Part shown: piece after piece, positions 35,589-52,321 of the stretch
Layout of the letters: each line of letters opens with the position of its first letter
How positions within the stretch are numbered: position 1 is the first letter of the stretch
Origin: an uncultured Syntrophaceae bacterium
GTDB taxonomy: Bacteria; Desulfobacterota; Syntrophia; Syntrophales; UBA8958
Direction: 5' to 3'
NCBI GenBank assembly: GCA_964492965.1
Contig: CAZBME010000001.1
Span: forward strand, 210,705 to 274,704
DNA length: 64,000 nucleotides
The notes under the pieces: generated by a model
Database searches by the model: none
The model's input: the letters and a program-made list of their open reading frames with translations, nothing else
Told to the model about the DNA's origin: nothing
Made by a program: the position numbers and the translations under genes

Positions 35589-35662
35589 ATTTCTCTCACC
35601 TTTCATTTGATTGATCATTGTTTATTATTCTATACCGTAATCAACGCTTCCCCCTGGACTGA

Positions 35663-36550
35663 TCAAATATTCAGATCCGTGCGTGGTTGCTTTTCACCCG
35701 AGGAATAGTCATACCATCCTTTCCCGGTCTTTCGGCCAAGGTCGCCCGATGCAACCATTTTCTTCAGAATCAGGGAAGGCGCAAATTTGGGATCTTTATA
35801 GCTGTCCCACATCGTTTCCAGCACTGCGAGGCCGATTTCAAGACCGACAAAATCGTTGAGTTCGAAGGGGCCCATGGGATGATTCAGACCGAACTTCATG
35901 GCCGTATCGATATCTTCAATCGATGCCACACCTTCAGCCAGGCATTTATATACCTCGCAGCGTAGAGCCGCATTGACCCGATTGACCAGGAAACCCGGGC
36001 CATCCTTCACATACACAGGCTTTTTCCCGAGCTTCTCCGCAAGATCTCTGATGATCTGGGCCGTTTCCGGGGAAGTCTTTAATCCTCTGATGACCTCGAC
36101 CAGTTTCATTACTGGAACGGGGCTGAAGAAGTGCATGCCGGCGAACTTCTCGGGACGCTTTGTGGCGGCCGCCAGATCGGTAATAGGAATCGATGACGTG
36201 TTGCTGGCAAAGATAACGTGAGGAGGACATATCTCATCCAGCTTCTTGAACAGTTCCACTTTGGCCTGTTTGTTTTCGAAGATGACTTCAATGACCAGAT
36301 CGCAATCCTTGGCCGGCGTCAATGCTGTCGTTGTCGTAATTCTACCCAGAATGGCCGCTTTATCATCCTCGGTCAATTTCCCTTTAGTCACATTGCCCGT
36401 CAGATTCTTTTGAATGATATTGACGCCCTTCTGCAGGAATTCCTCATTGATATCCTGCATCACTACCCCATAGCCGGCGGCGGCGGAAACCTGCGCGATC
36501 CCCGATCCCATGAAACCCGCGCCAATAACCATAATATTCCTTATTTCCAT
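35663..36550 (-). CDS. hbd: 3-hydroxybutyryl-CoA dehydrogenase
   Basis: MEIRNIMVIGAGFMGSGIAQV (Rossmann) and the HADH signature region are present. The start at 36550 follows GGAGGAAG. The track ORF extension to 36709 is non-coding leader. Confidence 0.9.
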   Translation of the reverse strand: MEIRNIMVIGAGFMGSGIAQVSAAAGYGVVMQDINEEFLQKGVNIIQKNLTGNVTKGKLTEDDKAAILGRITTTTALTPAKDCDLVIEVIFENKQAKVELFKKLDEICPPHVIFASNTSSIPITDLAAATKRPEKFAGMHFFSPVPVMKLVEVIRGLKTSPETAQIIRDLAEKLGKKPVYVKDGPGFLVNRVNAALRCEVYKCLAEGVASIEDIDTAMKFGLNHPMGPFELNDFVGLEIGLAVLETMWDSYKDPKFAPSLILKKMVASGDLGRKTGKGWYDYSSGEKQPRTDLNI

Positions 36551-36644
36551 TATCTTCCTCCATTCCCTTGATTGGTTCAATTTCCCAAGCACAACCCGCT
36601 TCCATGTTATTTGGCATACAAACATCTTGCTTGCGAAGCTAAGA

Positions 36645-36660
36645 GCAAAGACCATACCAG
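36645..36660 (-). promoter_or_regulatory. sigma-54 promoter of the hbd-thiolase-ACAD operon
   Basis: The minus strand reads CTGGTAT-GGTCT-TTGCT (nifH-like TGGTAT-N5-TTGC) in the canonical register, about 95 nt upstream of hbd. Confidence 0.7.
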
Positions 36661-36856
36661 GCGGCTGCTTGCATGAATCTTGATAATCGCAACACGGAAA
36701 ATTAATCATATATTTAAAGGCTATACATCCGGAAGGCAGATATTTTTCATTTTCCGATGACGAGTATAATATTCAATCATGAACCTTTTTTATAATCTAA
36801 CTTGACTTTGAATCCGTATTATTGTATCCTTTAGATACATAGGAGATTGTGGAAGT

Positions 36857-38260
36857 ATGCTTCAGATACAAGATGGCCTGATATCAATTTTGCAAGAGAT
36901 TTCGGATGCGGTAGCCATCGTGAATCAGGACTATCTCGTTATTTATTCGAACGAACCCTTCAATCATCTCTTCAATTTTTACCCCGGCCCACATGGCAAA
37001 GAAGAATGCAGCGCCTTGCGACAGTTGAAACTACATGCCTGGGACAGTGAACTTTTATCGACCATGCAGAAAAGAACATATCCCGGCAGCTATAAGGGCG
37101 CTGACATCCTTGTGTATTATGTTCACAAAGTGAAAAAAGAAAAATTCTTTCTGGTTCTGATTAAGCACAGCAGCGCCAAGGGAGAAAAATTTTCTTCCTA
37201 TAACCACCCGATCAATCCTTATCTTGATGAGACGGAAATACAGGCGGAGAAGCTTTCCCCGGACTTTAAAAAACTTATCGGCGAAGATATCCGATTCAAA
37301 AGAGCACTCCTGCTTGCCCAACGGGCGGCTCGCGCCGATCAGCCCGTGCTGATTCTGGGGGAAAGCGGTACGGGAAAAGAGATTCTCGCACGGGCTATTC
37401 ACAGCAACAGCCGGCGTAGCAAGAAACCCCTCGTAGATGTGAATTGCGCAGCCATTCCGGACACGCTCATTGAAAGCGAACTTTTTGGTTATGAGCGGGG
37501 CGCCTTCACCGGCGCCAGGAAGGAAGGCCGCACAGGATACTTCGATGAAGCCCATGAAGGGACCATCTTGATGGATGAAATCGGGGACGCCTCTTTGCAA
37601 ACGCAATCCAAGCTGTTGCGGGTCCTCGAAGACGGAAGCTTCAAGCGTGTCGGCGGAAATCGTAATGTTAAGGTGGACGTGCGTATCATCTCTTCGACAA
37701 ACCGCGATCTGGCCAAACATGTGGATGAAGAAAAATTCCGGGAAGACCTGTTTTACCGCCTGAATACATTTACGATACAGCTGCTTCCTTTGCGGGAACG
37801 GGTGAATGATATCCCCCTGCTCGTAGACCACTTTCTGGCCTTGAACAGCGAACGTGAGAAAAAGAACTTTACCATTCTGCCGTCTGCTATGGAAATCATC
37901 CAGGCCTATCATTGGCCCGGAAACGTCCGTGAGCTGAAAAGCGTCGTATACTATGCCGTTAACCTCGCCTCCGGGTATATTATTACACCGAGCGCGCTCC
38001 CGAATTTTCTCTTTTCCACAAACGATTCAAAAAGCAAGAGAGTCAAATCAACACAGAATTCTTCGGCCCTGCCGCAAACACAAAACATCCCCATGGTTGT
38101 CCAGAACATAGAAAAAGATATGATCCGTGAAGCGCTAGGAAACTCAGCCACGAAGACCGAGGCCATCAAAAAGCTGGGGATCAGCCGGAAGACCTTCTAT
38201 ATCAAGATCAAGCAGTATGGCCTTGAACAATTCCTCGATAAATCTTATCATTCGAGATAA
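36857..38260 (+). CDS. sigma-54-dependent transcriptional activator (PAS-like sensor, AAA+, Fis HTH)
   Basis: Motifs GESGTGKE, ESELFGYERGAFTGA and RVLEDGSFKRVGG are present. The C-terminal HTH reads TKTEAIKKLGISRKTFYIKIKQYGL. Confidence 0.92.
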   Translation: MLQIQDGLISILQEISDAVAIVNQDYLVIYSNEPFNHLFNFYPGPHGKEECSALRQLKLHAWDSELLSTMQKRTYPGSYKGADILVYYVHKVKKEKFFLVLIKHSSAKGEKFSSYNHPINPYLDETEIQAEKLSPDFKKLIGEDIRFKRALLLAQRAARADQPVLILGESGTGKEILARAIHSNSRRSKKPLVDVNCAAIPDTLIESELFGYERGAFTGARKEGRTGYFDEAHEGTILMDEIGDASLQTQSKLLRVLEDGSFKRVGGNRNVKVDVRIISSTNRDLAKHVDEEKFREDLFYRLNTFTIQLLPLRERVNDIPLLVDHFLALNSEREKKNFTILPSAMEIIQAYHWPGNVRELKSVVYYAVNLASGYIITPSALPNFLFSTNDSKSKRVKSTQNSSALPQTQNIPMVVQNIEKDMIREALGNSATKTEAIKKLGISRKTFYIKIKQYGLEQFLDKSYHSR

Positions 38261-38299: not shown

Positions 38300-38315
38300 T
38301 GGTTTATAATCTGCA
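38300..38315 (+). promoter_or_regulatory. weak candidate sigma-54 promoter upstream of HMGL-like lyase 1
   Basis: TGGTTT-ATAAT-CTGCA has GG and GC at the canonical register, but the -24 half is poor. Confidence 0.3.
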
Positions 38316-38474
38316 GAGAAAAGAGGAAAGTAATTCAGCAATAGACCTATGATTTGGTAAGTATTTTATGGTAATCATAAATGCCTTTTGTAGAAGCAGT
38401 TTGTTTTTTGCGATGAATATGAATACGAACGACCAATATCTAACGAGCGCCATCAACATTTAGGGACATATGCC

Positions 38475-39440
38475 ATGAAAGATCAGATAACCATCGTCGA
38501 AGTATCCCCTCGGGACGGCCTCCCTGAATTATTCGATCGTGCAGCCAGTGCAGACAAAATCTCTTATATAGAGGGATTAGTTAAAGCAGGCCTGAAAAAA
38601 ATCGAATGCGTTGCGTTTACGCATCCTCGTCACATTCCGGAACATGCCGATGCGGAGATCGTGATGGCAGGCCTGAAAAAGAAATCCGACGTGACCTACA
38701 TCGGTCTTGTCCCTAATGAAATCGGTTGCCGTCGAGCCCTGATTGCAGGTGTTGATGAAATTGTAACCCTTGTGGCGGCAAGCGATACCTTTACGAGGGT
38801 GAATGCCGGAAAAAGCTTGAAAGAGCACATGTATAAAACATTGCCTGCCGTATTCGATGTGGCAAAAAAGAGTGCTATCAGCGTGCGAAGCTATATTCTT
38901 ACGGCATTCGGATGCCCGTATACCGGTAAAGTCCCCTTCGATGAAGTCATGCAGTTGGCGCTGAAACTAAACTACATGGGTGCAAAAGAAATTGTCCTCG
39001 CCGATACAACGGGAATGGCCAACCCGGTTCAGGTGAAAAAACTCATCGAGCTGATCCTCGCATTGAAGCTTGATAACAAGCTGGCGGTCCATTTCCACAA
39101 TACACGGGGAACGGCATTGCTCAATTGCTATGCCGCTTTTGAAGCAGGCGTGCGAATTTTTGATACATCCCTGGGCGGTATGAGCGGAACGCCCTATGGA
39201 GCGATGAAGCATGCCTTCGGCTACTGGAATGTTGCAACAGAGGACCTCGTTCATCTGGCCGAGGATATGGGCGTTGAGACAGGCATTGATCTGGATCGAC
39301 TTCTTGACTGTGTCAGTGTCGGGGAACGGCTGGCGAAAACCGCACTGCCAGGTCATATCCTGAGGGCAAGGGCCAGTTCAAGACTGGCCAAAGTACCTGC
39401 TCGTCCCGCAAGAATTTCAGAAATGACATCCGGGGATTAA
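38475..39440 (+). CDS. HMG-CoA-lyase-like DRE-TIM metallolyase, divergent paralog 1
   Basis: IVEVSPRDGLPE, AVHFHNTRGTAL and SLGGMSGTPYG align with the canonical EVGPRDGLQN, HxHDTxG and GLGGCPYA regions. Substitutions occur at conserved positions. Confidence 0.85.
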   Translation: MKDQITIVEVSPRDGLPELFDRAASADKISYIEGLVKAGLKKIECVAFTHPRHIPEHADAEIVMAGLKKKSDVTYIGLVPNEIGCRRALIAGVDEIVTLVAASDTFTRVNAGKSLKEHMYKTLPAVFDVAKKSAISVRSYILTAFGCPYTGKVPFDEVMQLALKLNYMGAKEIVLADTTGMANPVQVKKLIELILALKLDNKLAVHFHNTRGTALLNCYAAFEAGVRIFDTSLGGMSGTPYGAMKHAFGYWNVATEDLVHLAEDMGVETGIDLDRLLDCVSVGERLAKTALPGHILRARASSRLAKVPARPARISEMTSGD

Positions 39441-40043
39441 TATCGACCGACCCTTTGCGGCCATTTCTGACCATGATTTGTTTTGGGGGCTTTATTCGGT
39501 TCAGCCCCGGGAAGAAACGATGGCATCAAGGCCGCAAAAAATATTGTCCCGATCTGACATTGAACCACAGACACCACAGTTGTGTAGTAACGATACAATC
39601 TTATCTCAGGATGCCTGTCTCGCCCTTAACCTCACCACACCTGGATTAAATGCATGAAATAGTATTCGATGCAATCGGCTATACGAAGCATGAGACAAAA
39701 ACGCCTTCGATTCAGATACCATTTGTTACTTAAAGATACATTTCAGATCGCATCGAGCCTTGCATTTTAATTTGACACATCTCCCGGTACTTGTACGTCT
39801 TCATAAATAATATCTTAAATCATTAGCTTAGGACATGCTAACGGGCAATGCGGCAGGCACCGGGATTGCCTGGCATGCTTTGTGTAATCTCCCCTCATAT
39901 TCTAGAAATTCCCCAGGGAAGCTTGCGTCATTCCCTGTTTTAAAGGTTTTAGAGTGATCAGCCTTAAATCCGCATGGGAGAGCAGGCATAAAGGGTTGAA
40001 CCTGTAGTGGTGCATAATCCCCTTGATCCGGGAGACCGGTTTT

Positions 40044-40140
40044 CATCTTGAAAGGTAAGCGTCTGTCAGCCACCTGTTCGGAAGCGTTGCTTTCGGCTAC
40101 CCCCTCCCCCGACGCTGCCAGACGCTCACCTTTCAAGATG
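40044..40140. repeat. long inverted repeat (22-bp arms, 1 mismatch, 53-nt loop) in the 840-bp non-coding spacer
   Basis: The left arm CATCTTGAAAGGTAAGCGTCTG (40044-40065) pairs with the right arm CAGACGCTCACCTTTCAAGATG (40119-40140). Confidence 0.8.
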
Positions 40141-40280
40141 ACGCCGCATCAGAGAAGGGAAGGCAAGGGCGAAATGGAGATAGATCCCGCCGCCTATTGC
40201 CTGCCGAGAAACCGTGGCCCCATAATAAAGTGCAGGAACAGCGATTATTTAAAATTTTTGATAACCGAAGGAGGGTTGGT

Positions 40281-41672
40281 ATGAAGAAAAAGATCGGATT
40301 TGTTTTAGGTATTGTTATCGGAATCGCCGTGGCCTATATGTCGCCGCCCCAAGGACTGACCATTAAAGCCATGTGGGCGCTGGGAATATTTACAGGAGGC
40401 ATTATTTATCTGGTCTTCGATGTGTTCCCGGATTACATTGTCACTCTCGCGATGTGCAGCCTGTGGGTCCTTTTTGATACCGTGCCTTTCAACAAGGCAT
40501 TTTCATTCTTTTCCAACGCGAACTGGTGGGTTCTGGTCGGCGCTTTCGGCATCGGCTTGGCGGCATCAAAGAGCGGCCTGCTACGGCGGATTTCTCTCCT
40601 CATCATGAGAATTTTTCCTTCCACCTTTACCGGTCAGGTTTTAGCCATGCTGGGAGCGGGTACCATCATCGCGCCGCTGATCCCGTCTTTTACCGCCAAG
40701 GCCGCCATCTGCTCGCCCCTTAGCGCCGGCATCAGCGACGCCATGGGATACGAGCGGAAATCAAGAGGCGCGGCAGGCCTGTTCGGCGCAAATGTCCTCG
40801 GCTTTATCGCCACAGCCCCGGGTTTTCTAAGTGCATCTTACCTGGGATTCATGCTGGTATCTCTGTTACCCAAAGAGGTTCAACCCCAATTCGACTGGAT
40901 GGGGTGGTTTACAATGTTTCTCCCCTGGACCATAATTTTACTTGTTCTGGGTTTTTTTGCCATTATGGTTCTATACAAACCCAAAGAGAAGGACTCCCTG
41001 CCGGCGGGCTATGCCGCCGATCAGCTGAAAAATATGGGCTCCATGAGCCGAATTGAAAAAATAACCGCCTTGGTCATCGCGGTCACTCTTCTTCTTTGGA
41101 TGACTGAAAAAATGCATGGTGTTTCTGCGGCTGTTTCTGCCATCCTGGCCGTTGTTGTTCTTATTGCGGCAAAGGTTTATGACCGGGCTGACTTCCGATC
41201 CGGCATTGCCTGGGATGCGGCACTCTTCGTCGGTACCATTGTCGGCATCGCTTCAGTATTTCCGGCTCTGGGAATCGACAAGTGGCTGGGGACCGTCCTG
41301 AAACCATATGTTGCCCCCTTGGCCGGGAATCCATATCTGTTTGTCGCCGGATTCTCCATCATCATTTATCTCATCAGATTCGTATTAATCTCTCAGACGG
41401 CGGCAATTGCCATTTTTGTGGTTATGCTGGCACCGCTGGCCGCCCAGACCGGTATCAATCCCTGGATCGTCGGCATTGTCGTCTATGCGGCGGGCAACAC
41501 CTGGACGGTATTTTACCAGAATGCCCCGTACATTGCCGCCTTTTACGCCACGGGCGGAGATCTGGTTGACCACAGCCAGATGGTAAAGCTTTCCGTTGCC
41601 TACATGATCATCTCCCTAATCGGCTTTATGGCCTGCATTCCGTTCTGGCAGGTGATGGGGCTGGTGAAATAA
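40281..41672 (+). CDS. anion permease of the SLC13/DASS - ArsB/NhaD superfamily (di/tricarboxylate-type transporter), copy 1
   Basis: The 463-aa product is polytopic and DASS-like in its N-terminal organisation. The start at ATG 40281 lies 7 nt after GGAGGG. The upstream extension in the track ORF is spacer. Confidence 0.7.
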   Translation: MKKKIGFVLGIVIGIAVAYMSPPQGLTIKAMWALGIFTGGIIYLVFDVFPDYIVTLAMCSLWVLFDTVPFNKAFSFFSNANWWVLVGAFGIGLAASKSGLLRRISLLIMRIFPSTFTGQVLAMLGAGTIIAPLIPSFTAKAAICSPLSAGISDAMGYERKSRGAAGLFGANVLGFIATAPGFLSASYLGFMLVSLLPKEVQPQFDWMGWFTMFLPWTIILLVLGFFAIMVLYKPKEKDSLPAGYAADQLKNMGSMSRIEKITALVIAVTLLLWMTEKMHGVSAAVSAILAVVVLIAAKVYDRADFRSGIAWDAALFVGTIVGIASVFPALGIDKWLGTVLKPYVAPLAGNPYLFVAGFSIIIYLIRFVLISQTAAIAIFVVMLAPLAAQTGINPWIVGIVVYAAGNTWTVFYQNAPYIAAFYATGGDLVDHSQMVKLSVAYMIISLIGFMACIPFWQVMGLVK

Positions 41673-41715
41673 TAAATCTACATGATCATTGCTATACTTT
41701 AAGGAGGAAAAAAGG

Positions 41716-43059
41716 ATGCGAAAGACCATTTGGGAAGAATACAGAAACAAAACAGCCACCGCCGAGGAAGCGGTCAAGGCCGTAAAAACGGGGGATTGGG
41801 TATACTACAGCCACTTTATCATGACCCCTGTCACCCTGGACCGTGCCCTGGCGAAAAGGATTGGTGAAATCACCGATGTCAAAACCAGCATGTCAAGCGG
41901 CATGCATCAGGTTCAGGTGGCCGCCTGCGATCCGGAGGGACAATCCTTTACCCACAACAGCACATTCTACAGCAAAAACGATCGGGCTCTGGCCAAGCAG
42001 GGATCGACTTTCTTCATCCCGGCAAACTATCATGAGCAGCCTTGGCGACTTCGCAACGGATTTTCCCCCAAGCCTAATGTCGCCTTTATCAAGACAACGC
42101 CCATGGACAACAACGGCCTGTTTAACTTCGGCACATCGAACTCCTATACCAAGGCGGTGACGGAAATGGCCGACATTGTTATTGTGGAGACCAATGAAGG
42201 GGTTCCCAAGTGCCTGGGCGGGCACAGTGAAAATATCCACATTGCCGATGTCGATTATGTCGTGGAGGCTGAAAAAACACCCATGATGCCCATACCAAGG
42301 CCCGTTGCTTCACCGGAAGAAGTTAAAATGGCCGAGTTGATCATTCAGGAGATTCATGACGGCGCCTGCCTGCAACTGGGTATCGGGGGCATTCCCAACA
42401 TGGTTGGAAGCCTGATCGCCGAATCGGACCTCAAGGATCTGGGCATGCACAGCGAGATGATGTGCGATGCCTTCATGGATCTCTACGACAAAGGAAAAAT
42501 CACCGGACGTCATAAACATACGGATCGTAACAAGATGATCTATACCTTTGCCATGGGCAGCCCCGACCTATATGAATTCCTTGATGACAATCCCGTCTGC
42601 GCGAGTTATCCCGTGGATTATACGAATACGGCGGAACATATCTCACGGAACGACAACATGATCAGCATCAACAATGCCCTCCAGGTGGACCTCTTCGGTC
42701 AGACCGCCTCCGAATCCATGGGTAAAAAACACATCTCCGGTTCGGGCGGCCAAGGTGATTTCGTCGTTGGCGCGGCCAAGTCGAAAGGCGGCAAAGCCTT
42801 CATCTGTCTTCGGTCCACCCGTATGATCGGGGACAAATTGGTATCCAGGATCGTTCCCGACATTCAGGGCATCGTTTCCGTACCAAGGGCGTGGGTATTT
42901 TATGTCGTCACGGAATTCGGCAAGGTCTGCCTGAAAGGAAAATCAACGTGGGCGATTGCCGAAGATATCATCTCCATTGCTCATCCTGATTTCCGTGAAG
43001 ACCTAATCAAGGCGGCCCAAGAGAGAGGCCTGTGGCGAAGGAGCAATAAGATCGTTTAA
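41716..43059 (+). CDS. family-I CoA-transferase of the acetyl-CoA hydrolase/transferase family (butyryl-CoA:acetate / 4-hydroxybutyrate CoA-transferase-like)
   Basis: The N-terminus is TAEEAVKAVKTGDWVY. LQLGIGGIPN and the catalytic-Glu region QTASESMG...GSGGQGDF are present. The start at ATG 41716 follows AAGGAGG. Confidence 0.85.
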   Translation: MRKTIWEEYRNKTATAEEAVKAVKTGDWVYYSHFIMTPVTLDRALAKRIGEITDVKTSMSSGMHQVQVAACDPEGQSFTHNSTFYSKNDRALAKQGSTFFIPANYHEQPWRLRNGFSPKPNVAFIKTTPMDNNGLFNFGTSNSYTKAVTEMADIVIVETNEGVPKCLGGHSENIHIADVDYVVEAEKTPMMPIPRPVASPEEVKMAELIIQEIHDGACLQLGIGGIPNMVGSLIAESDLKDLGMHSEMMCDAFMDLYDKGKITGRHKHTDRNKMIYTFAMGSPDLYEFLDDNPVCASYPVDYTNTAEHISRNDNMISINNALQVDLFGQTASESMGKKHISGSGGQGDFVVGAAKSKGGKAFICLRSTRMIGDKLVSRIVPDIQGIVSVPRAWVFYVVTEFGKVCLKGKSTWAIAEDIISIAHPDFREDLIKAAQERGLWRRSNKIV

Positions 43060-43133
43060 TGCCTGTCAAGCCTGAGTATTCGACAATTAACTGCGATGTT
43101 CTGCAAATTTCTACATAGGGAGGGGTTTTATTT

Positions 43134-44651
43134 ATGTCTAGTGATGTTGGTGGCGTTGAGTCCGGGTGGACGCTGGGCACAGATCAGTGGATCGGGCTCA
43201 TGGCCGGGATTGTCTTGTTTGCTTTGTTTATGGTGCTGCCCCCCATTGCACCGATTACCCCTCTGGGGATGAAGGGGGCGGGCCTGTTTCTTTTGTTTGC
43301 CTGCTGGCTATTTACGACACCGCTGCCGCTATATGCCATTTGTTTTTTTGTCATGGGACTGGCGCCGATTTTGGGCCTCCTGGACTCGGACAAGACGATG
43401 GCCTATTTGGGAAGTTGGATCAACCTGTTTCTAGTAGGCGCCTTCGCCCTGGGCCGCAATCTGGACCGGACACAGGCTGCCCGACGCATTGCCTTGTGGG
43501 TATGCGGTTTGCCGATCATGAAGCACCGCCCATGGACGTTCTTTACCATCTTTACCCTTGTAACGGCTATCTCCCCCATTCTTTTGTGCTCGTCGGTCGT
43601 GGCCACCGTTGTTTTCACGACGATTCTCATTAGTTTTTTCAGCGCCATCGGCATTAAGAAGGGTGACCGGTTCGGGAGCATTATGGTTCTTGCCGTCACG
43701 TGGTCGGCCGTTGCCGGTTCGATGATCTTCGCCTGGGGAACCGTCATCAACCTGTTTTCCATCGGTGTGGTAAAAAAACAGACCGGTTACCAACTCGGTC
43801 TCATGGAATGGATGATCTACGGCTTGGTCGTAGCCGGCGTCACCTATGCCATTTACTGGCTCGTCATCCGCTTCGTCACCCGAATCGATGTGAGCCGCAT
43901 GAAGGATCTGCTGGAACCGGGCTTCATCCAGGAGGAGCGAAAGACGCTGGGGCCCATGAGTTCGGGTGAAAAAGCGTCTATCATCGTCATGTGCGTGGCC
44001 ATAGCCTGCTGGTTTTTACCGGAAATCATCAGCTTGACCGCCCCCGGTCCGCTGGCGAAATGGATGAAGAGCCACCTGACGTGGCCGGCGACGGCCCTGG
44101 TGCTCGCAGCGGCTTGCACGATTATCCCCGTGAAGATCAACGGAGAAAAACGTATGCTTCTTAACTGGGGAGAATGGACAAGCTCAGTCGAATGGGGCAT
44201 CCTGTCCATCATTGCCACGGGCCTCGTCCTGGGCGATATTCTTTCCAATCAGGCAACGGGAATCCCTACTTTCTTCATGGCCACAATCGGCGATCTGGTC
44301 AAGGGCGGCGGGGGTGAGTACCTGCTGGTCTTTCTCGTGGCGGGAATCGGATGCCTCCTGACAGAGGGGTTGTCGAACTTCGGGCTGATCGCCGTGTTTA
44401 TTCCCCTGGCCATGTCCATTTCGATGTCCACAGGCGTCGGCAATCCCATTGCCATGGCGATTGTGGCGACAGGGGCCTACAACCAGAGTTTCGCTTTGCC
44501 TCTCTCGCCGGTTCTAGCCATCGCCTACGGCACGGGATGGGTTAACCCCAAGGATGCCGTCAAGTATGGGTTTATTTTGGATGTTCTGGTCGGGCTGGGG
44601 TTAACTTTCATCGCCTACCCCATCCTCAAGATGATTGTCCCCATGCCTTGA
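43134..44651 (+). CDS. anion permease of the SLC13/DASS - ArsB/NhaD superfamily, copy 2
   Basis: The 505-aa polytopic protein has the same overall layout as copy 1 but is strongly diverged. GGGAGGGG SD precedes the start. Confidence 0.7.
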   Translation: MSSDVGGVESGWTLGTDQWIGLMAGIVLFALFMVLPPIAPITPLGMKGAGLFLLFACWLFTTPLPLYAICFFVMGLAPILGLLDSDKTMAYLGSWINLFLVGAFALGRNLDRTQAARRIALWVCGLPIMKHRPWTFFTIFTLVTAISPILLCSSVVATVVFTTILISFFSAIGIKKGDRFGSIMVLAVTWSAVAGSMIFAWGTVINLFSIGVVKKQTGYQLGLMEWMIYGLVVAGVTYAIYWLVIRFVTRIDVSRMKDLLEPGFIQEERKTLGPMSSGEKASIIVMCVAIACWFLPEIISLTAPGPLAKWMKSHLTWPATALVLAAACTIIPVKINGEKRMLLNWGEWTSSVEWGILSIIATGLVLGDILSNQATGIPTFFMATIGDLVKGGGGEYLLVFLVAGIGCLLTEGLSNFGLIAVFIPLAMSISMSTGVGNPIAMAIVATGAYNQSFALPLSPVLAIAYGTGWVNPKDAVKYGFILDVLVGLGLTFIAYPILKMIVPMP

Positions 44652-44671
44652 TAAGAGGAAAGAGACGAGCA

Positions 44672-46150
44672 ATGATTATGAAAACCCCGGCCGCAATCAT
44701 CTCCTGTAAACATGACGAACTCATGAACGCCGCAGTATGGCGCATGGGTTCGTCATGGCCTTTACGCGAGGTACCTTTGAATATGAATATGGAAAAGGAC
44801 ATCGACAAGATGCTCTTGAGACCCGTATCCACGCTGGAATACAATGCCCGTAAATTCGGTATTGTGGTCTCTCGCAACAGAATAAAGGGGGAAATATCTT
44901 TAGCCCATTTCCGCCAAGCCCTTCAGATTATCACCCAGCGACACCCGTTCCTGGGTGCTGCCTTTTATGAGCACGAAAGCCGTATCCATTTCAAAATAAT
45001 CGAAGGTTTCAGCCCACCCTTAACCATCAAGGAAAACATCACCACGCCCGAGCAACGGGAGGCATTATATGAAGAGGAACTGAATTCGCCCATTGATCCC
45101 TATGACAATCTATGGCGCGTTCTGTTGATACTTGACGGCAGCAAGAATGAAATCGATGAAAACAGTCATATCGATGTGATCCTATCCCTCCAGCATGCCA
45201 TCTGTGACGGTCTTTCTATCCTGAATCTGGCCAAAGAGATTCTGGAACAAGTCCGGGCTCTGGATGAGAGCTCACTTCTTTATGAGAATCAAAAATTGTC
45301 GGCCGCGCCGCCCTTCGACGATTTTCTGCCCGCCATCCTGGATAATGACATTGACCGGTCATGCCCGGAACCGTCTGTCGATTATGAGACCGTTGACACA
45401 CTGGGCCGCCATCTTTCCGTCCCGAAGAGTCAGTGCCGGATTCATTGCATCACAGGAAGTTTTACCGAAGGGGATATGCGAGGCCTCTGCCGCATCAGCA
45501 AAAGAGTCCATGTGTCCATCCATGGCCTCATGGCGGCCTGCATCATGAAAGCCATCAGCGATTGCATCGACAACCCTGCGGATAAGGAACTCCGTCTTTT
45601 ATTGAGGAATCCCGTCAACAGGCGGAAGCAGGTTTCGCCTCCCCTTGGCAACCAGGCGCTGTTGTGCTTTGTCGCCTCGGAGTTGATCCTTTGCACTATC
45701 CGCAAAACGACGTCCATCGCGGAGATCGGCCGGCATATCATGCATCAGCTCGACCAGGATATCCAAAATAACAAAGCATTGAAGCGATACCGGACCGTCG
45801 TCGAATCCGCCGACCGAGACCAGATGGACAAGGAAAAATATGTCCAGGCGTTGACCTTATCTAATGTCGGGCTTATCGATACACCCGCCGATTACGGCAA
45901 GTTCGAATTATTGGATACCAATTTTATCTCAAGCAATAAACATCACGCGATCCAGCTTTCCTTTACGACATTTTTAAATCGACTACATTATGTCATGCTG
46001 TATACCTCTCCCTGGTATGAAATGGAGTTGATCAAAACGATAAACGATCGATTCAGAAATCATTTGTCCAATTTTCTATACTCAGAGACTCAGATATTCA
46101 ATATCATTGACAATACGATCATGACAAGTGTCCATGGTCAGCAAACCTAA
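44672..46150 (+). CDS. stand-alone condensation / WS-DGAT / PapA5-like acyltransferase (HxxxDG motif)
   Basis: The motif SLQHAICDGLS has His-Asp-Gly codons at 45194-45211. The size is about 450-490 aa. A C-terminal LSNVG segment recalls the SNVPGP region of WS/DGAT enzymes. The start is uncertain: ATG 44672 after GAGGAAAG, with later Met codons possible. Confidence 0.65.
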   Translation: MIMKTPAAIISCKHDELMNAAVWRMGSSWPLREVPLNMNMEKDIDKMLLRPVSTLEYNARKFGIVVSRNRIKGEISLAHFRQALQIITQRHPFLGAAFYEHESRIHFKIIEGFSPPLTIKENITTPEQREALYEEELNSPIDPYDNLWRVLLILDGSKNEIDENSHIDVILSLQHAICDGLSILNLAKEILEQVRALDESSLLYENQKLSAAPPFDDFLPAILDNDIDRSCPEPSVDYETVDTLGRHLSVPKSQCRIHCITGSFTEGDMRGLCRISKRVHVSIHGLMAACIMKAISDCIDNPADKELRLLLRNPVNRRKQVSPPLGNQALLCFVASELILCTIRKTTSIAEIGRHIMHQLDQDIQNNKALKRYRTVVESADRDQMDKEKYVQALTLSNVGLIDTPADYGKFELLDTNFISSNKHHAIQLSFTTFLNRLHYVMLYTSPWYEMELIKTINDRFRNHLSNFLYSETQIFNIIDNTIMTSVHGQQT

Positions 46151-46160
46151 AAGGAGATTT

Positions 46161-46949
46161 ATGATGCATTACACCACCATTCTGGTTGAAAAAAAATCCG
46201 ATCTGAAGATTGCCGTTATTACCCTGAACCGCCCGGATGTCCGAAATGCCATCAACGGCGCCATGCGGGATGATCTGTATCGGGCCATTGCGGAACTTGA
46301 GGCTGACGAAGATGTCCGGGCCGTCATCCTGACTGGCGGACCGAAGGTTTTTGCCGCCGGAGCCGATATCGCAGCCATGGTGAATAACACGGCCATGGAT
46401 ATGTTCGGCGGCGGCGCCGCCCTGTGGGACATTACCTTTAAAATGGAGGAGTCAAAGAAACCATTTATTGCTGCTATTTCCGGATTCTGCCTTGGCGGCG
46501 GCTGCGAACTGGCCATGGGCTGCGATATCCGGATCGCCTCGGAAAACGCACAGTTTGGCCAGCCGGAAATCAATATCGGGATTATGCCGGGAGCCGGCGG
46601 CACGGTGCGCCTGACACGGTTGGTCGGCATCGGAAAGGCAAAGGAGCTTTGTCTCACGGGAAGAATTGTCCCGGCATCGGAGGCCCTGTCGATAGGCCTG
46701 ATAAACAAGGTGGTCATGGAAGACACCCTGATGGAAGAAGCTGTTGCCATGGCGAAGATGATCACCCGGCACAGCCCTGTGGCGGTCAGTCTGACCAAGT
46801 ATTCCGTGCAGAATGCGGCAGAGACGGACCTTCATACCGGTAAATCCATCGAGCGTTCCTGTTTCTCCCTGGCCTTTGCCAGCGAAGACCAGACGGAAGG
46901 CATGAAGGCGTTTTTGGAAAAGAGAAAACCCAATTACCAGGGCAAGTAG
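46161..46949 (+). CDS. enoyl-CoA hydratase/isomerase (crotonase family)
   Basis: Motifs ITLNRPDVRNA, LTGGPKVFAAGADI and GFCLGGGCELAMGCDIRIA are present. The ATG at 46161 follows AAGGAG. Confidence 0.92.
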   Translation: MMHYTTILVEKKSDLKIAVITLNRPDVRNAINGAMRDDLYRAIAELEADEDVRAVILTGGPKVFAAGADIAAMVNNTAMDMFGGGAALWDITFKMEESKKPFIAAISGFCLGGGCELAMGCDIRIASENAQFGQPEINIGIMPGAGGTVRLTRLVGIGKAKELCLTGRIVPASEALSIGLINKVVMEDTLMEEAVAMAKMITRHSPVAVSLTKYSVQNAAETDLHTGKSIERSCFSLAFASEDQTEGMKAFLEKRKPNYQGK

Positions 46950-47024
46950 GAAACATCCCGGCAGAAGCATCCTGTTATTTTAGCGGCTACTATAAGTGAA
47001 GGGCAGACGTTTGGTATTACTTTG

Positions 47025-47993
47025 ATGAAAGCTGAAGAGCATATCACGATTGTCGAGGTATCACCCCGCGACGGGCTTCCGGCCGTATGCGCAGGAGTAT
47101 CAACAGCCGACAAGATCATGTATATAGACGCTCTTATCAATGCCGGACTAACACAAATCGAGGTTGCGGCCTTCACACACCCTCGGCTTATCCCGGAAAA
47201 TGCCGATGCCGAAAAAGTCGTTTCCGGTATTAGGAAAAAAGCGGGTGTCACGACCATCGGATTGGTTCCCAATGAAATCGGTTGCCGCAGGGCTTTAGTG
47301 ACAGAGATTGATGAAATATTAACGATCATCGCAACAACTGATATTTTCAACCAATTCAATACTGGGAAAACAAGAAGGCAATCCCTTTACAAAGTGATTC
47401 CCTCGATTTTCGAAGCGGCGGCAGCGGAGGGGAAAAAGTCGAGAACCTATCTCATGACCGCATTCGGATGCCCTTATACAGGGAAAATCCCTTGCGAGGA
47501 GATCATACAACTTTTCTTAAGATTATCTTGTATGGGTGCTAAAGAGGTTACTCTGCTTGATTCAACGGGAATGGCCAATCCAAGGCAGGTGAAGGAACTC
47601 GTAAGGCAAGTCATGGATTTGAAGACAGGAACCAGCCTGGCCGTTCATTTCCACAACACGAAAGGCACGGCTTTGACAAACTGTGTAGCTGCCTATGAGG
47701 CCGGTGCCCGGACTTTTTATTCTTCGGTCGGCGGTTTGAGCGGTACACCATCCGGAGCCATGGAATTGGTATTCGGATACTGGAACGTCCCGACGGAAGA
47801 TATTGTTCATCTCTTCGAAGAGATGGGAATCCATACAGGGATAAATATCGAACATCTGCTCGAATGCGTCAAGATGGCGGAATCGCTTGCAGGCAAAACC
47901 TTGCCGGGCCATCTCCTGAGGGCAGGACCCAATTCTCGGCTGCTCAAACCTCCCGATCCCACTACACTCATAAAAGACCGTATACTTCAGTAG
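47025..47993 (+). CDS. HMG-CoA-lyase-like DRE-TIM metallolyase, divergent paralog 2
   Basis: IVEVSPRDGLPA, AVHFHNTKGTAL and SVGGLSGTPSG are present. By eye it is roughly 55-60% identical to paralog 1. Confidence 0.85.
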   Translation: MKAEEHITIVEVSPRDGLPAVCAGVSTADKIMYIDALINAGLTQIEVAAFTHPRLIPENADAEKVVSGIRKKAGVTTIGLVPNEIGCRRALVTEIDEILTIIATTDIFNQFNTGKTRRQSLYKVIPSIFEAAAAEGKKSRTYLMTAFGCPYTGKIPCEEIIQLFLRLSCMGAKEVTLLDSTGMANPRQVKELVRQVMDLKTGTSLAVHFHNTKGTALTNCVAAYEAGARTFYSSVGGLSGTPSGAMELVFGYWNVPTEDIVHLFEEMGIHTGINIEHLLECVKMAESLAGKTLPGHLLRAGPNSRLLKPPDPTTLIKDRILQ

Positions 47994-48084: not shown

Positions 48085-49542
48085 TTATTCTTTTATCCCG
48101 GCAATCTTCTTGGCGATCTTTTTCTTGTGCTCCAGGTTCCCCTGGCGGGCGATCATGATTCGCTGGGCCTGGGGCGATCCGGCGCCGTGCATGGATTCGG
48201 TCCGGTAGCCGACAGCCGCCGTTCCCAGGGTCAGGTTCTCCACGAGCCTTAAAATACGGCATCTTTCTTCCGGCGTCACATCGGCGGCACCCTTCAAATA
48301 TTTCTCGAGGACTTTGCCGATTTCCGGATGGCGGAAATCCTTTTCCGAGGCCATAGTCACCATGAGGCCACCGGCAATGTCTTCGGCTAAACGGCAGATC
48401 TCGTAAGGGAATCGGGTCACATTCTGTTTGCAGACGTTGGCCAGCAGCAGGTCGATCAGGTACGTACCCGAAGCCGTTTTGTGACCTTCCGCCGAACAGG
48501 CGATGCCGCAGGAATAAAGGGTCTCATTCAGGTGGGTCATTTCGATGAGTTTGTCCTTGACGTGAGAGGCCTTGGCTGCGCCGTTGTAGTCGGCCGCCAA
48601 AGCCGCCGCGCCGATCAATACGTCGCCCACACCGGCCTTGCATCCTCCGTAGCTCTGGCGATGATATCCGGCAAACCGCTCCACCAAAAGACCGCTGAAC
48701 TCGTATTCCCCGCACATAAGGACATTCTCCCAGGGGATGAAAAGATTATCGAACACCATGAGGGCTTCATGACCGCCGAACTGGGCGTTTCCCACATCGA
48801 TGTCGCTTCCTTCCAGCTTCCGTGTGTCGCAGGACTGGCGTCCATAGATGTAGAAGATCCCTTCGGCATCCGCCGGCGCCACGAAAGAAACGGCATAGTC
48901 GGCATCATCCTTTCCCATGGCAATGGTCGGCATTGCGAGAATCCAATGGGAATTGACCGCTCCCGTCTGGTGGGCCTTTGCGCCGCGAACTACGATACCC
49001 TTATCGTTTTTCTCCACGACATGGACAAACATATCAGGATCCGCCTGCTTGCTGGGGGCCAGGTTACGGTCCCCTTTCGTGTCCGTCATGGCACCATCCA
49101 CGGTGAGATCCTCTTCCTGGATCATGAGCAAAAACTTTTTAAAGCGCTCATGATAGGTCGTGCCGAGTTTCTGGTCCATTTCGAAGGTGACGCTGTCCAC
49201 GGCATTGATGGCGTCCATCCCGACGCACCGCTGAAAGCAGGATCCTGTCTTTTGCCCCAGAAGCCGCTGCATCTTGACCTTTCTGACCAAGTCTTCCGTG
49301 CTCTGATGGAGATGACAGAACCGGTTGATCTTCTTGCCCGACAAATGGGAGGTAGCCGTCATCAGGTCCTCATGCTGGGGATCCTGGGCCGAGGCGTAGG
49401 TCATTTTTACGGAATTCATCGATGGCCTGATGATGGGATGGTCCACGGGATTCTTGACCAGTTCTCCCATCATGTAAATCTTGAAATTCATCTTGCGCAA
49501 ACTCTCTTCATACTGCTCAGGCGTCTTCAGTGCCATATCCAT
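48085..49542 (-). CDS. abfD: 4-hydroxybutyryl-CoA dehydratase / vinylacetyl-CoA delta-isomerase family protein
   Basis: Length and N-terminus fit AbfD/HpaB-fold proteins. GSCFQRCVGMD carries the CxxxC pair used for the [4Fe-4S] cluster in AbfD. Confidence 0.85.
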   Translation of the reverse strand: MDMALKTPEQYEESLRKMNFKIYMMGELVKNPVDHPIIRPSMNSVKMTYASAQDPQHEDLMTATSHLSGKKINRFCHLHQSTEDLVRKVKMQRLLGQKTGSCFQRCVGMDAINAVDSVTFEMDQKLGTTYHERFKKFLLMIQEEDLTVDGAMTDTKGDRNLAPSKQADPDMFVHVVEKNDKGIVVRGAKAHQTGAVNSHWILAMPTIAMGKDDADYAVSFVAPADAEGIFYIYGRQSCDTRKLEGSDIDVGNAQFGGHEALMVFDNLFIPWENVLMCGEYEFSGLLVERFAGYHRQSYGGCKAGVGDVLIGAAALAADYNGAAKASHVKDKLIEMTHLNETLYSCGIACSAEGHKTASGTYLIDLLLANVCKQNVTRFPYEICRLAEDIAGGLMVTMASEKDFRHPEIGKVLEKYLKGAADVTPEERCRILRLVENLTLGTAAVGYRTESMHGAGSPQAQRIMIARQGNLEHKKKIAKKIAGIKE

Positions 49543-49662
49543 TTCCTCCTTGAAGCGCGGCTTTTTTGTTGGATCATTCCTTAATATGATCAGATTCCGA
49601 TAAATGTCAACTGCTGCAAATGTTATAAATGATCTTTATATTAAATCCCGAGTCGCAACCTG

Positions 49663-50799
49663 TCAGCTCAGGATATGATTGGAAATCACCACCCGCTGGA
49701 TCTGATTGGTGCCCTCATAGATCTGCATGACCTTGGCATCGCGCATGCACATTTCCACGCCGTATTCCCTGAGGTACCCGTAACCCCCGAGGATCTGCAC
49801 AGCGTTGTTCGTCACCCGCATGGCCATATCCGCGGCAAAGCATTTGGCATAAGAGGCCATATAGTTGAAGGGCATATTGTTCATGGCAAGCCAGCAGGCC
49901 TTGTAGGTTAAGAGTCTTGCGGCCTCGATCTCCATGGCCATATCGGCCATCATGAACCGCAGGGCCTGGAGATTGGAAATCGGATGCCCGAAGGCCGTCC
50001 TTTCTTTTGAGTACTTGACGGCCAGTTCAAAGGCCCGAACGGCAATGCCGATGGCCTCCGCAGCCACGGAAGGCCTGGAAAGATCGAGGGCCTTCATGCA
50101 GATGCCAAAGCCCTGCCCTTCCTCGCCCAGACGATTCTCCACGGGGACACGCACATCCTCAAAGTTCACCTGCCGTGTATCCGAGGTCCGAATCCCCATC
50201 TTTTTCTCCTCCGGACCGACGGAAATGCCCGGGGTGTCCCGATCCACAATGAATCCCACAATACCCTTGTAGCGCAGTTTCTTGTCTGTGGTGGCAAATA
50301 CCGTATAGATATCGGCCACACCGCCATTCGTGATGAACTGCTTGCTGCCGTTGAGAATATAAGAGTCGCCATCGCGGCGGGCCGTCATGGCCAGTCCCGC
50401 CACATCGGAGCCTGCTCCCGGCTCGGTCAGGCAAAACGCCCCCAGTTTTCCTTCGTTGAGGACATCAAAATAGTGTTTTTTCTGGGCCTCATTCCCACCG
50501 ACCACGACCGGCTCAGGGGAAAGGAGTGTGCTCGCCGCCATCGTGGCGCCCACGCCGGCGCCGCCGTAGCAAAGCTCTTCCGTCACGATGATCTGGCCCA
50601 GCATATCAATACCGGGACCGCCGAACTCCTCCGGCACACCAGCCGTCAGGAGTCCTACTTCGTGCATTTTTTTGATAACCGGCCAGGGAAATTCTTCCTT
50701 GTCGTCATACTCGAGGATCACAGGAATAATCTCCTGTTCCGCAAATTTGCGGGCCATTTTTCTTAACGCTTCATGTTCTTCTGTTAATTGAAAGTCCAT
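49663..50799 (-). CDS. acyl-CoA dehydrogenase (butyryl-CoA dehydrogenase-like)
   Basis: Motifs LTEPGAGSDV, FITNGG and the C-terminal IYEGTNQIQRVVISNHIL are present. Confidence 0.92.
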   Translation of the reverse strand: MDFQLTEEHEALRKMARKFAEQEIIPVILEYDDKEEFPWPVIKKMHEVGLLTAGVPEEFGGPGIDMLGQIIVTEELCYGGAGVGATMAASTLLSPEPVVVGGNEAQKKHYFDVLNEGKLGAFCLTEPGAGSDVAGLAMTARRDGDSYILNGSKQFITNGGVADIYTVFATTDKKLRYKGIVGFIVDRDTPGISVGPEEKKMGIRTSDTRQVNFEDVRVPVENRLGEEGQGFGICMKALDLSRPSVAAEAIGIAVRAFELAVKYSKERTAFGHPISNLQALRFMMADMAMEIEAARLLTYKACWLAMNNMPFNYMASYAKCFAADMAMRVTNNAVQILGGYGYLREYGVEMCMRDAKVMQIYEGTNQIQRVVISNHILS

Positions 50800-50827
50800 A
50801 TATTCTTCACGCTCCAGTCATTGCTAT

Positions 50828-52009: not shown

Positions 52010-52131
52010 AATGCTTCCTTTCTATTCGGTCATTTCTTTAAAATGGATTTTTTCCAGGCAAAGAATCACTCATTAATCTCCGCACAAAGGACAAACACCC
52101 CCATTAGGCACAATGTCCCCCGAATATGAAT

Positions 52132-52147
52132 TACAATTGTTGTGCCA
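52132..52147 (-). promoter_or_regulatory. sigma-54-type promoter with a non-canonical -12 (thiolase-ACAD-abfD operon)
   Basis: The minus strand reads TTGGCAC-AACAA-TTGTA. The -24 is perfect and the register correct, but the -12 is TTGT rather than TTGC. It lies about 125 nt upstream of the thiolase start and shares its form with the site at 55470-55483. Confidence 0.55.
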
Positions 52148-52241
52148 ATGACGAAACGTTACGTTCTTTTGGATTAAACTACCACATATCAAAGGGATGC
52201 GTTATTCAAGAATGTTGGTGAACAAGGTAAACTGAAATATT

Positions 52242-52290
52242 TGATTCAGCAATGGATCAGTTATCATAGGAATGATCCATTGTTGAATCA
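52242..52290. promoter_or_regulatory. tandem 18-bp palindromes (putative enhancer/UAS for the CBS-PAS EBP), sites A and B
   Basis: Site A is TGATTCAGCAATGGATCA (52242-52259) and site B is TGATCCATTGTTGAATCA (52273-52290). Their centres are 31 bp apart, about 95-145 bp upstream of the promoter at 52132-52147. Confidence 0.65.
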
Positions 52291-52321
52291 GTGATCTCCG
52301 GCGGTGTAAAAACCGAATGGG

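Follow-up and report, generated by a model that had tools for sequence, protein, structure and literature searches.

A putative sigma-54-controlled organic-acid catabolic locus of a Syntrophaceae bacterium, with Cys-less HMG-CoA lyase-like proteins and a permease-linked condensation-family protein

Gene content and organization of the locus

We analyzed a 64-kb stretch of DNA (the window; 64,000 nucleotides of contig CAZBME010000001.1, assembly GCA_964492965.1) from an uncultured Syntrophaceae bacterium, concentrating on a plus-strand gene cluster that an earlier reading of the letters (the original prediction) had described as an uptake and degradation route for an organic acid. Identical sequence also occurs in the sequencing runs SRR13723393 and SRR13723396. 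Genes were called from an open reading frame listing combined with Pfam and NCBIfam scans, and start codons were corrected using homologue alignments and ribosome-binding sites. Seven co-directional genes were found, encoding two proteins resembling hydroxymethylglutaryl-CoA (HMG-CoA) lyase (HMGL-like 1 and 2), two anion permeases (DASS1 and DASS2), a CoA-transferase, a condensation-family protein (CFP) and a crotonase. The genes, their domains, their order and the spacer of ∼840 bp that follows the first of them were all as originally predicted. Listed in order, these features are:

38475-39440, plus strand: HMGL-like protein 1 (PF00682, 9.7e-35; DRE-TIM; catalytic Cys replaced by Thr, GGMSGTPY)
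39441-40280, no strand: non-coding spacer of 840 bp
40281-41672, plus strand: DASS1, a DASS/SLC13-type anion permease (Na_sulph_symp 5.2e-44, CitMHS)
41716-43059, plus strand: CoA-transferase of the acetyl-CoA hydrolase/transferase (4-hydroxybutyrate or butyryl-CoA:acetate) type (PF02550 and PF13336, AcetylCoA_hydro N and C)
43134-44651, plus strand: DASS2, a divergent DASS/CitMHS-like permease (Na_sulph_symp 1.3e-25, CitMHS 1.5e-21)
44789-46150, plus strand: CFP, a stand-alone condensation-family protein (PapA_C 9.4e-20; motif QHAICDG; start taken from homologue alignment)
46161-46949, plus strand: crotonase/enoyl-CoA hydratase (ECH_1 3e-73)
47025-47993, plus strand: HMGL-like protein 2 (PF00682; Cys replaced by Thr, GGLSGTPS)

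On the 3' side of the spacer, the genes are separated by 43, 74, ∼131-137, 10, and 75 nt, the third of these distances being that for the homology-supported start of CFP, which shrinks to ∼26 nt if an upstream ATG is taken. The functional unit is larger than the one first described, and also takes in an upstream gene for a sigma-54-dependent activator and a divergent operon encoding 3-hydroxyacyl-CoA dehydrogenase (3HCDH), thiolase and a short-chain acyl-CoA dehydrogenase (ACAD). The locus is of a known general kind, and contains two uncharacterized enzyme groups together with a recurrent pairing of a regulator and an enzyme.

Related loci (given L numbers here) were compared by gene neighborhood. 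An independent 311-kb metagenome contig, Ga0071346_1000187, which holds both L001 and L015, encodes proteins that are 57-89% identical to those of the window. On this contig, the activator and an HMGL-like gene are divergent to a series comprising 3HCDH, thiolase, ACAD, DASS1, CoA-transferase, DASS2, CFP and AMP ligase genes, and on the 3' side of the HMGL-like gene there are an enoyl-CoA hydratase (ECH, 77%), a second CoA-transferase (65%), and a carboxyltransferase. All the parts of the window cluster are brought together on this contig, although in a different order, and because the same components recur there within ∼33 kb, their clustering goes beyond chance. A strong GC-rich hairpin with a T-run lies directly 3' of the ACAD gene in L001 (4975-5060), so that the DASS1-CFP block in that locus is probably transcribed separately from the 3HCDH-thiolase-ACAD genes.

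The seven genes are not kept together elsewhere as one block or as one conserved pathway. Only sub-modules recur in other genomes, and there are three of these: the activator with an HMGL-like gene; a transporter with a glutamate-type CoA-transferase and beta-oxidation genes; and DASS2 with CFP. The proposal of a catabolic locus for uptake, CoA transfer, hydration and carbon-carbon cleavage fared better. The cluster lies among beta-oxidation genes, is associated with sigma-54 control, and reclusters in a related genome. We read the cluster as one arm of a sigma-54-controlled organic-acid catabolic island of a strict anaerobe resembling Syntrophales, built as a mosaic of three modules, and consider this reading to be evenly balanced between right and wrong. 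Module A would comprise the sigma-54 activator and the Cys-less HMGL-like gene, divergent to the 3HCDH-thiolase-ACAD operon, and module B would comprise the anion permease DASS1 and the glutamate-type CoA-transferase, allowing the acid to be activated without ATP. In module C, the unrelated permease DASS2 would be coupled to the rare CFP, followed in the window by the crotonase and the second HMGL-like gene.

HMGL-like proteins and the sigma-54 activator

Both HMGL-like proteins match YngG of B. subtilis (1ydo) in phmmer searches (E = 3.9e-63), and score 275 and 254 bits, respectively, against the NCBIfam model for HMG-CoA lyase (PRK05692, cutoff 246). Automatic annotation would therefore name both of them HMG-CoA lyase, notwithstanding the absence of the defining feature. 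When aligned to the structures 1ydo and 6nds, the motifs SPRDG, HFHNT, and WNV(A/P)TED correspond to the Arg-Asp pair and the metal ligands (Asp, His-x-His, Asn), while the signature loop GGLGGCPYA is changed to GG(M/L)SGTP(Y/S)G, which has Thr at the position of the catalytic Cys and is followed by a 4-residue insertion. This Cys (C266 in the human enzyme, C237 in that of P. mevalonii) is needed for full activity of HMG-CoA lyase, and its mutation in the human enzyme lowers activity ∼10^4-fold. Thr was found in both window proteins and in 120/120 of their best homologues, and the window proteins are not canonical HMG-CoA lyases. Homologues are numerous (3127 matches at E ≤ 1e-40), and those that have been named carry automatic annotations and come from metagenome-assembled genomes (MAGs) of Syntrophales, Smithellaceae and Syntrophaceae, a distribution that likewise points to Syntrophales-like Desulfobacterota as the group of the window organism.

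Compared with characterized HMG-CoA lyases (human HMGCL, YngG, and LiuE of P. aeruginosa), the window proteins belong to the same Pfam family and agree in the Arg-Asp pair, in HxH and in the Asn metal ligand, but differ in that they are Cys-less, are paired with a sigma-54 activator, and have no methylcrotonyl-CoA carboxylase gene nearby. No gene for a biotin carboxylase or a carboxyltransferase could be located in any part of the 64 kb, and a context of leucine or isovalerate degradation is absent. The canonical leucine/isovalerate pathway considered in the original prediction was accordingly rejected, on the grounds of a window without carboxylase and lyases without the catalytic Cys. A literature search on HMG-CoA lyase in Syntrophus and Smithella, on syntrophic isovalerate degradation and on isophthalate clusters returned nothing applicable, and the lyase that acts on a tertiary alcohol when naphthalene is degraded anaerobically is AtuA-like rather than HMGL-like. 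Identity between the two window proteins is 58%, and each is closer to homologues elsewhere (up to 69% for HMGL-like 1 and 73% for HMGL-like 2), the 73% match being to the homologue encoded beside the activator in a Syntrophales MAG. They also represent two motif subtypes, with DTSLGGMS in HMGL-like 1 and YTSIGGLS in HMGL-like 2. A recent tandem duplication of the window lyases was rejected, as the identity between them is too low.

The gene for HMGL-like 1 sits directly 3' of the activator gene, a position in which related genomes also have an HMGL-like gene. The features on this side of the cluster are:

33136-34293, minus strand: short-chain ACAD, last gene of the divergent operon (Pfam ACAD N, M and C)
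34323-35618, minus strand: thiolase of the acetyl-CoA C-acyltransferase family (Thiolase_N and Thiolase_C; TIGR01930 394 bits, over cutoff)
35663-36550, minus strand: 3HCDH, Hbd-like (3HCDH_N and 3HCDH; start at 36550)
36644-36659, minus strand: sigma-54-type promoter TGGTATGGTCTTTGCT serving the divergent operon of beta-oxidation genes, ∼95 nt ahead of the corrected 3HCDH start
36857-38260, plus strand: sigma-54-dependent activator (Sigma54_activat 1.7e-67, AAA_lid_14, HTH_8)
38369-38384, plus strand: sigma-54-like site TGGTAATCATAAATGC before HMGL-like 1, with a GG..GC spacing one base over consensus

The activator consists of an N-terminal sensor region of ∼135 residues, which had no Pfam match, an AAA+ domain, and a Fis-type helix-turn-helix, and its orthologues hold the equivalent position in L015, L016, and L017. 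In the divergent operon, the open reading frame listed for 3HCDH (35663-36709) is ∼53 codons too long and contains the sigma-54 promoter; it was rejected in favor of the ATG at 36550, which is preceded by the ribosome-binding site ggagga. This protein scores 386 bits against PRK05808 (cutoff 408), and its L001 orthologue has 295 residues. The thiolase is 87% identical to that of L001, and the ACAD is 88% identical to the L001 protein in the equal operon position, with a top NCBIfam match to the non-decarboxylating glutaryl-CoA dehydrogenase Acd that falls under the cutoff (366 bits against 470).

Control of acyl-CoA catabolic clusters by sigma-54 activators is common in Desulfobacterota. The 16-mer TGGTATGGTCTTTGCT before 3HCDH is identical in L001/L015, has the near-identical counterpart TGGTATGGACTTTGCT in L016, and similar sites are present in L002 and L003. 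L015 and L016 (TGGAATGATATATGC) and L017-L021 (TGGAATGAATTATGC) also have counterparts of the site before HMGL-like 1, each ahead of its own HMGL-like gene, suggesting that the HMGL-like gene is a regulated target. At the level of sequence pattern, the domains of the activator and the conserved promoter at 36659-36644 point to a sigma-54 regulon, in which the sites before HMGL-like 1 and DASS1 are the weaker ones.

The pair formed by the orthologous activator and an HMGL-like gene directly after it was found in the window, in L015, in L016 (Syntrophales MAG GCA_028713375.1), and in the Smithellaceae contigs L017-L021. It is always divergent from a beta-oxidation operon, while the transporters (DASS or MFS) and the activating enzymes (CoA-transferase or AMP ligase) of these loci differ. 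The Smithellaceae activator (L017-L021; for example, L017 5880-7996) is 350 residues long and has no N-terminal sensor region, which leaves room for regulation in trans. On the 3' side of the pair, L017-L021 encode a DUF3141 protein and a pair made up of a PAS histidine kinase and an HD-response regulator.

These features raise the possibility that the HMGL-like protein encoded next to the activator serves chiefly to sense a ligand, as a partner of the sigma-54 activator (a "trigger enzyme"), and not as a pathway enzyme. The pair is the most widely conserved element of the loci, the Smithellaceae activator has no sensor domain of its own, the catalytic Cys is lost, and DhaK/DhaL acting with DhaR provide a precedent for enzymes that control an AAA+ activator. 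However, none of the metal ligands has been lost, nor has the catalytic Arg-Asp, the HMGL-like gene behaves as a regulated target under its own sigma-54 promoter in three lineages, and a second HMGL-like copy ends the enzyme operon of the window, so that we regard a mainly regulatory role as highly improbable.

The DASS1-to-HMGL-like 2 operon is preceded by the 840-bp spacer, and two further features were located in this region:

39855-39870, plus strand: candidate sigma-54 promoter AGGCACCGGGATTGCC for the operon from DASS1 to HMGL-like 2, found by pattern scan
40043-40141, plus strand: inverted repeat with 28-nt arms, 93% complementary, and a 43-nt loop, found by repeat search and unique in the window

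The candidate promoter has the core GGCAC-N5-TTGC with the correct GG-N10-GC spacing, and lies ∼410 nt before the DASS1 start. The inverted repeat is ∼140 nt 5' of DASS1, in a leader with a folding z of -3.4, and may be either a regulatory hairpin or the scar of a mobile element. No protein remnant was detected in the spacer by blastx/tblastn against all locus proteins, and Rfam gave no match in it at the E-value threshold and only a tRNA in the whole window at the gathering threshold. The spacer could not be aligned to the intergenic region of L001. Since the L001/L015 contig holds all the components in another order, the spacer is likely to be a rearrangement junction together with the leader of the DASS1 operon.

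Permeases, CoA-transferase and the condensation-family protein

Both permeases match Na_sulph_symp over its full length (151.5 bits for DASS1 and 90.8 bits for DASS2, Pfam cutoff 27), and both remain under the TIGR00785 cutoff of 198.6 (181.2 and 119.9 bits); DASS2 scores nearly equally on CitMHS and Na_sulph_symp. DASS1 is 57% identical to DASS1 of L001, and each window permease is only ∼22-24% identical to the L001 orthologue of the other, indicating that the two are not recent duplicates. A recent tandem duplication of the permeases was rejected at this level of identity. The duplicated transporters and lyases had been taken as a sign of two related substrates, but the permeases are unrelated paralogues, DASS2 is tied to CFP, and HMGL-like 1 occupies the activator-adjacent position. 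DASS2 is 76-81% identical to the permease encoded directly 5' of the CFP gene in L001, L002, and L003. In the same loci CFP is only 47-62% and ECH/3HCDH ∼45-48% identical, so that DASS2 is far more constrained than its neighbors. When plasmids were searched by tblastn with CFP and DASS2, the matches were of only 21-30% identity, and DASS2 was ≤30% identical to any plasmid-borne SLC13 permease.

The CoA-transferase carries HSEM at residues 245-248, with a Glu (Glu247) that we take to act as E238 does in AbfT, and GSGGQ at 342. Its top curated match, TIGR03948, reaches 505 bits, under the equivalog cutoff of 674.8, and it is 89% identical to the L001 enzyme. Both Pfam domains, the HSEM Glu and GxGGQ are shared with the glutamate-type, family I-like enzymes AbfT, But, and Cat1; unlike these, the window enzyme scores under the equivalog cutoff and its gene is located between two anion permease genes. 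The crotonase has both catalytic Glu residues (motifs GGGCELA and GQPE), best fits generic short-chain hydratase models, under their cutoffs, and matches no methylglutaconyl-CoA hydratase model; the protein to which it is 77% identical is the ECH encoded 4 kb 3' of the HMGL-like gene in L015. The original prediction had also invoked the logic of itaconate, mesaconate and citramalate degradation. No family III CoA-transferase, MaoC hydratase, or CitE/HpcH-like lyase is present among the cluster proteins, and with these marker families (Ict, Ich, and Ccl types) absent, a pathway of the itaconate/citramalate type was rejected.

It could be argued that the genes make up one linear route for branched or unsaturated dicarboxylates (3-methylglutaconate, HMG or 3-methylglutarate), with the duplicate permeases and lyases serving two related substrates. 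The DASS, CoA-transferase, crotonase and HMGL-like genes are co-oriented with short gaps, both HMGL-like proteins exceed the NCBIfam cutoff, the upstream ACAD has its best, sub-cutoff match in a non-decarboxylating glutaryl-CoA dehydrogenase, and related loci contain carboxyltransferase genes. In contrast, the Cys is absent from both lyases and from their whole subfamily, the permeases are as distant as noted above, the seven genes are not kept as a unit, and the crotonase fits generic hydratases and not methylglutaconyl-CoA hydratase. Such a scheme would also leave 3HCDH and CFP without a role, and we consider it unlikely.

CFP is the most unusual part of the locus, in line with the original prediction, which had found no obvious role for an acyltransferase in this cluster. 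The label "acyltransferase" is itself insecure, because the closest solved relative of CFP, AzeD, is a dehydratase. CFP relatives form 10 clusters at 90% identity in 5.8 billion proteins, with a profile re-search returning the same 10, and three clusters at 50% identity in 1.84 billion representatives, beyond which scores drop sharply to those of generic PapA5-like proteins. None were found in 185,579 GTDB species genomes in two scans, one with the single sequence and one with the family alignment, and a metagenome scan added one 1.8-kb contig and nothing more. CFP matches PapA_C with 71 bits (cutoff 30), and QHAICDG is invariant across the family. An AlphaFold2 (AF2) model of CFP (pLDDT 75.8) was compared with known structures by Foldseek, which ranked AzeD first (8s6l; E = 3.9e-23, TM 0.73-0.76), followed by PapA5, the C/E/Cy domains of nonribosomal peptide synthetases (NRPS), and TRI3; the top 50 were all folds of the C-domain, PapA5 or TRI3 type. 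AzeD was also the only significant sequence-profile match of CFP in the PDB (E = 2.6e-10), and PapA5 was not retrieved in that search.

According to a 2026 preprint, AzeD is one of the stand-alone proteins of the C family, varies at the first His, and dehydrates a bicyclic carbamate by an E1-type mechanism that needs a special heterocyclic substrate (doi 10.64898/2026.07.17.738954). Like this protein of azetidomonamide synthesis in P. aeruginosa, CFP is a stand-alone protein of ∼430-450 residues in which the first His of HHxxxDG is replaced, by Gln in the case of CFP, although the identity between the two is only 19%. Unlike AzeD, which belongs to an NRPS biosynthetic cluster, CFP is encoded in sigma-54 catabolic operons, straight after a permease gene. 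With PapA5 (1q9j), the mycobacterial phthiocerol dimycocerosyl transferase, CFP shares PapA_C, the two-lobed CAT/C-domain fold, HxxxDG and the coupling to a transporter. PapA5 is coupled to MmpL7, and both PapA5 and PapA3 work with dedicated exporters. CFP differs from PapA5 in that identity in the fold alignment is 13%, polyketide synthase (PKS) and acyl carrier protein genes are absent from the window, and the partner is a DASS permease and not an RND exporter.

The gene neighborhoods of CFP relatives were examined in the same way. A transporter gene lies directly 5' of the CFP gene in L001-L004 (DASS2) and in L009 (MFS), and this transporter gene, not the lyases, is the stable partner of CFP. 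In L002-L005, DASS2 is 76-81% and CFP 47-51% identical to the window proteins, and these loci also carry a CoA-transferase homologue without the catalytic Glu and a 108-residue Cys-rich protein. The sets in L002 and L003 are under sigma-54 promoters, with that of L003 preceding the DASS-CFP operon, and the L002-L005 sets adjoin 3HCDH and ECH genes, with HMG-CoA-synthase-like/DUF35-thiolase genes also present in L002-L004. In L009, the gene for the CFP relative P0025 is preceded by two MFS transporter genes and by those for a PaaK-like ligase and an ECH. The most distant member, P0026 (L012), is found beside a PKS fragment and an esterase, neighbors that fit an ancestry in thioester-to-ester acyl transfer.

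Two components of these loci were characterized further. The Glu-less CoA-transferase homologue, encoded 3' of CFP, has QSG in place of HSE (L002 11414-13040, L003 11418-13062, L005 1559-3207), and is followed by the conserved Cys-rich protein (108-110 residues, motif DNSCCxxGGCYF), which had no match in Pfam or NCBIfam and no counterpart in the window. In L002 (956-2392) and L003 (4271-5707), the DASS2-CFP operon has as a neighbor the gene for a 478-residue fusion of an archaeal-type HMG-CoA-synthase-like domain with a DUF35 zinc-ribbon/OB domain, which adjoins genes for an SCP-x-type thiolase, ECH, and 3HCDH.

The match to PapA_C, the intact HxxxDG, the PKS context of the distant relative and the acyl-CoA-rich surroundings all point toward acyl transfer by CFP. 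The most probable assignment, which we offer only tentatively, is that CFP would carry out an acyl exchange, with CoA on one side and an oxygen ester of a compound carried by DASS2 on the other. The step would then be a CoA-dependent cleavage of an imported anionic ester, in which the energy of the ester bond is kept as a thioester. CFP might alternatively be an AzeD-like, cofactor-free dehydratase or hydro-lyase that acts on a hydroxy acid imported by DASS2, before or after its activation with CoA. This would agree with AzeD being the top solved-structure match by both sequence profile and fold, with the replaced first His in both proteins, and with the Glu-less CoA-transferase homologue in L002, L003, and L005, since acyl-CoA to serve as donor is not obviously provided in those loci. 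However, CFP and AzeD are distant in sequence, the E1-type mechanism depends on its special substrate, the Pfam match of CFP is to PapA_C, the more distant P0026 has PKS surroundings of the kind expected for acyl transfer, and the crotonase is already present for hydration or dehydration. A dehydratase therefore appears rather improbable to us.

The direction of transport could also be the reverse, with CFP moving the acyl group of an accumulating acyl-CoA onto a hydroxy acid and DASS2 exporting the ester, as an overflow valve that relieves CoA trapping in the manner of a carnitine acyltransferase. The constant position of a transporter gene directly 5' of CFP, the PapA_C match, and the dedicated exporters of PapA5 and PapA3 in mycobacteria are consistent with export. 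However, all of the long contexts are sigma-54-driven catabolic operons with an uptake-type architecture, DASS members are mostly importers or exchangers, and biosynthetic genes are missing from the surroundings of the close CFP family. We judge an export role to be very unlikely, and retain ester cleavage after import as the preferred function of CFP.

A proposed catabolic route

From the domains, motifs, synteny and promoters observed, we infer a substrate class, a direction of transport and a reaction for CFP, which together would amount to an ATP-sparing, sigma-54-controlled catabolism of a short, probably beta-substituted (di)carboxylate. This proposal stands, in our estimation, an even chance of being correct. 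Within it, the DASS2-CFP pair would most probably deal with the substrate in an ester form, through ester/thioester exchange, although this step taken alone is less likely than not. An anionic short carboxylate or dicarboxylate would be imported, converted to its CoA ester by CoA transfer, dehydrogenated by the ACAD and hydrated by the crotonase. Unbranched carbon would then be oxidized and thiolyzed by 3HCDH and thiolase. A 3-substituted, HMG-CoA-like intermediate would instead be a tertiary alcohol that cannot be oxidized, and the HMGL-like metallolyases may split it into acetyl-CoA and a carbonyl compound. The catalytic motifs are intact in the crotonase (two Glu), the CoA-transferase (the Glu of HSE, and GSGGQ), and CFP (HxxxDG), and the HMGL-like proteins keep the RD pair, HxH, and the Asn metal ligands.

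Several observations weigh against the proposal. The HMGL-like proteins do not have the Cys needed for full HMG-CoA lyase activity, and their assignment as lyases is drawn from family membership only. AzeD, the nearest relative of CFP among solved structures, performs a dehydration that requires no acyl donor, the adjacent CoA-transferase homologue is without its catalytic Glu in three CFP loci, and one CFP homologue (P0005) is located amid flagellar genes and another beside an amidase. The sigma-54 site before HMGL-like 1 has non-consensus spacing, and that of DASS1 is only a pattern match, 410 nt 5' of the gene. Synteny is best conserved with a single, fairly close relative, whose proteins are up to 89% identical, and shared ancestry accounts for part of it. 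Finally, the substrate would be specified only as a class, the short (di)carboxylates.

The proposed route resembles the Liu/Atu-type and the lower benzoyl-CoA/glutarate-type clusters of anaerobes in its use of ACAD, crotonase, 3HCDH, and thiolase, and of a C-C lyase where the carbinol is tertiary. Unlike those clusters, the window has neither a biotin carboxylase nor a glutaconyl-CoA decarboxylase, has two extra permeases and CFP, and encodes lyases that are Cys-less. Taken jointly, two enzyme functions not described before would be at work: CFP, locked to its permease, would cleave an imported anionic ester with CoA and without spending ATP, and the large Cys-less HMGL branch, co-inherited with the activator across Syntrophales, would cleave 3-hydroxy-3-substituted acyl-CoAs that are beyond the reach of beta-oxidation, bypassing the carboxylation of the Liu/Atu pathways; we think it unlikely that both parts will prove right together.

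Two other gene sets were noted in the window. A second, convergent sigma-54 unit occupies the minus strand at 48085-57884. It encodes, in order, a CBS-PAS sigma-54 activator, a periplasmic binding protein, an AMP ligase, thiolase, ACAD, and a 4-hydroxybutyryl-CoA dehydratase/HpaB-like protein, with sigma-54-like sites at 55483-55468 and 52147-52132. A separate set at 13811-28715 encodes a PocR/LuxR-type regulator, an MCP, a 595-residue carboxylesterase, two SDRs, an MFS transporter, and an AMP-dependent ligase, as well as a glycyl-radical-enzyme activase (20141-21052) and a PFL-like glycyl radical enzyme (21056-23455), and looks like an uncharacterized glycyl-radical catabolic cluster.

In digesters, sediments, and oil reservoirs, the last and energy-limited steps in the breakdown of organic matter fall to Syntrophales and their relatives, and to our knowledge many of their catabolic routes are still unknown. 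Should the proteins prove to be ordinary, the locus would merely be another short-chain acyl-CoA operon. Thousands of genes, however, are automatically named "hydroxymethylglutaryl-CoA lyase" without the residue needed for that reaction, here under a dedicated sigma-54 activator, and if the substrates of the Cys-less lyases were established, a widespread annotation would be corrected and the way in which these organisms handle beta-branched acids could come to light. If CFP and its permease do carry out a CoA-dependent ester cleavage, anaerobic catabolism would gain a new entry reaction that saves energy, and a condensation-family protein would have its first catabolic role.

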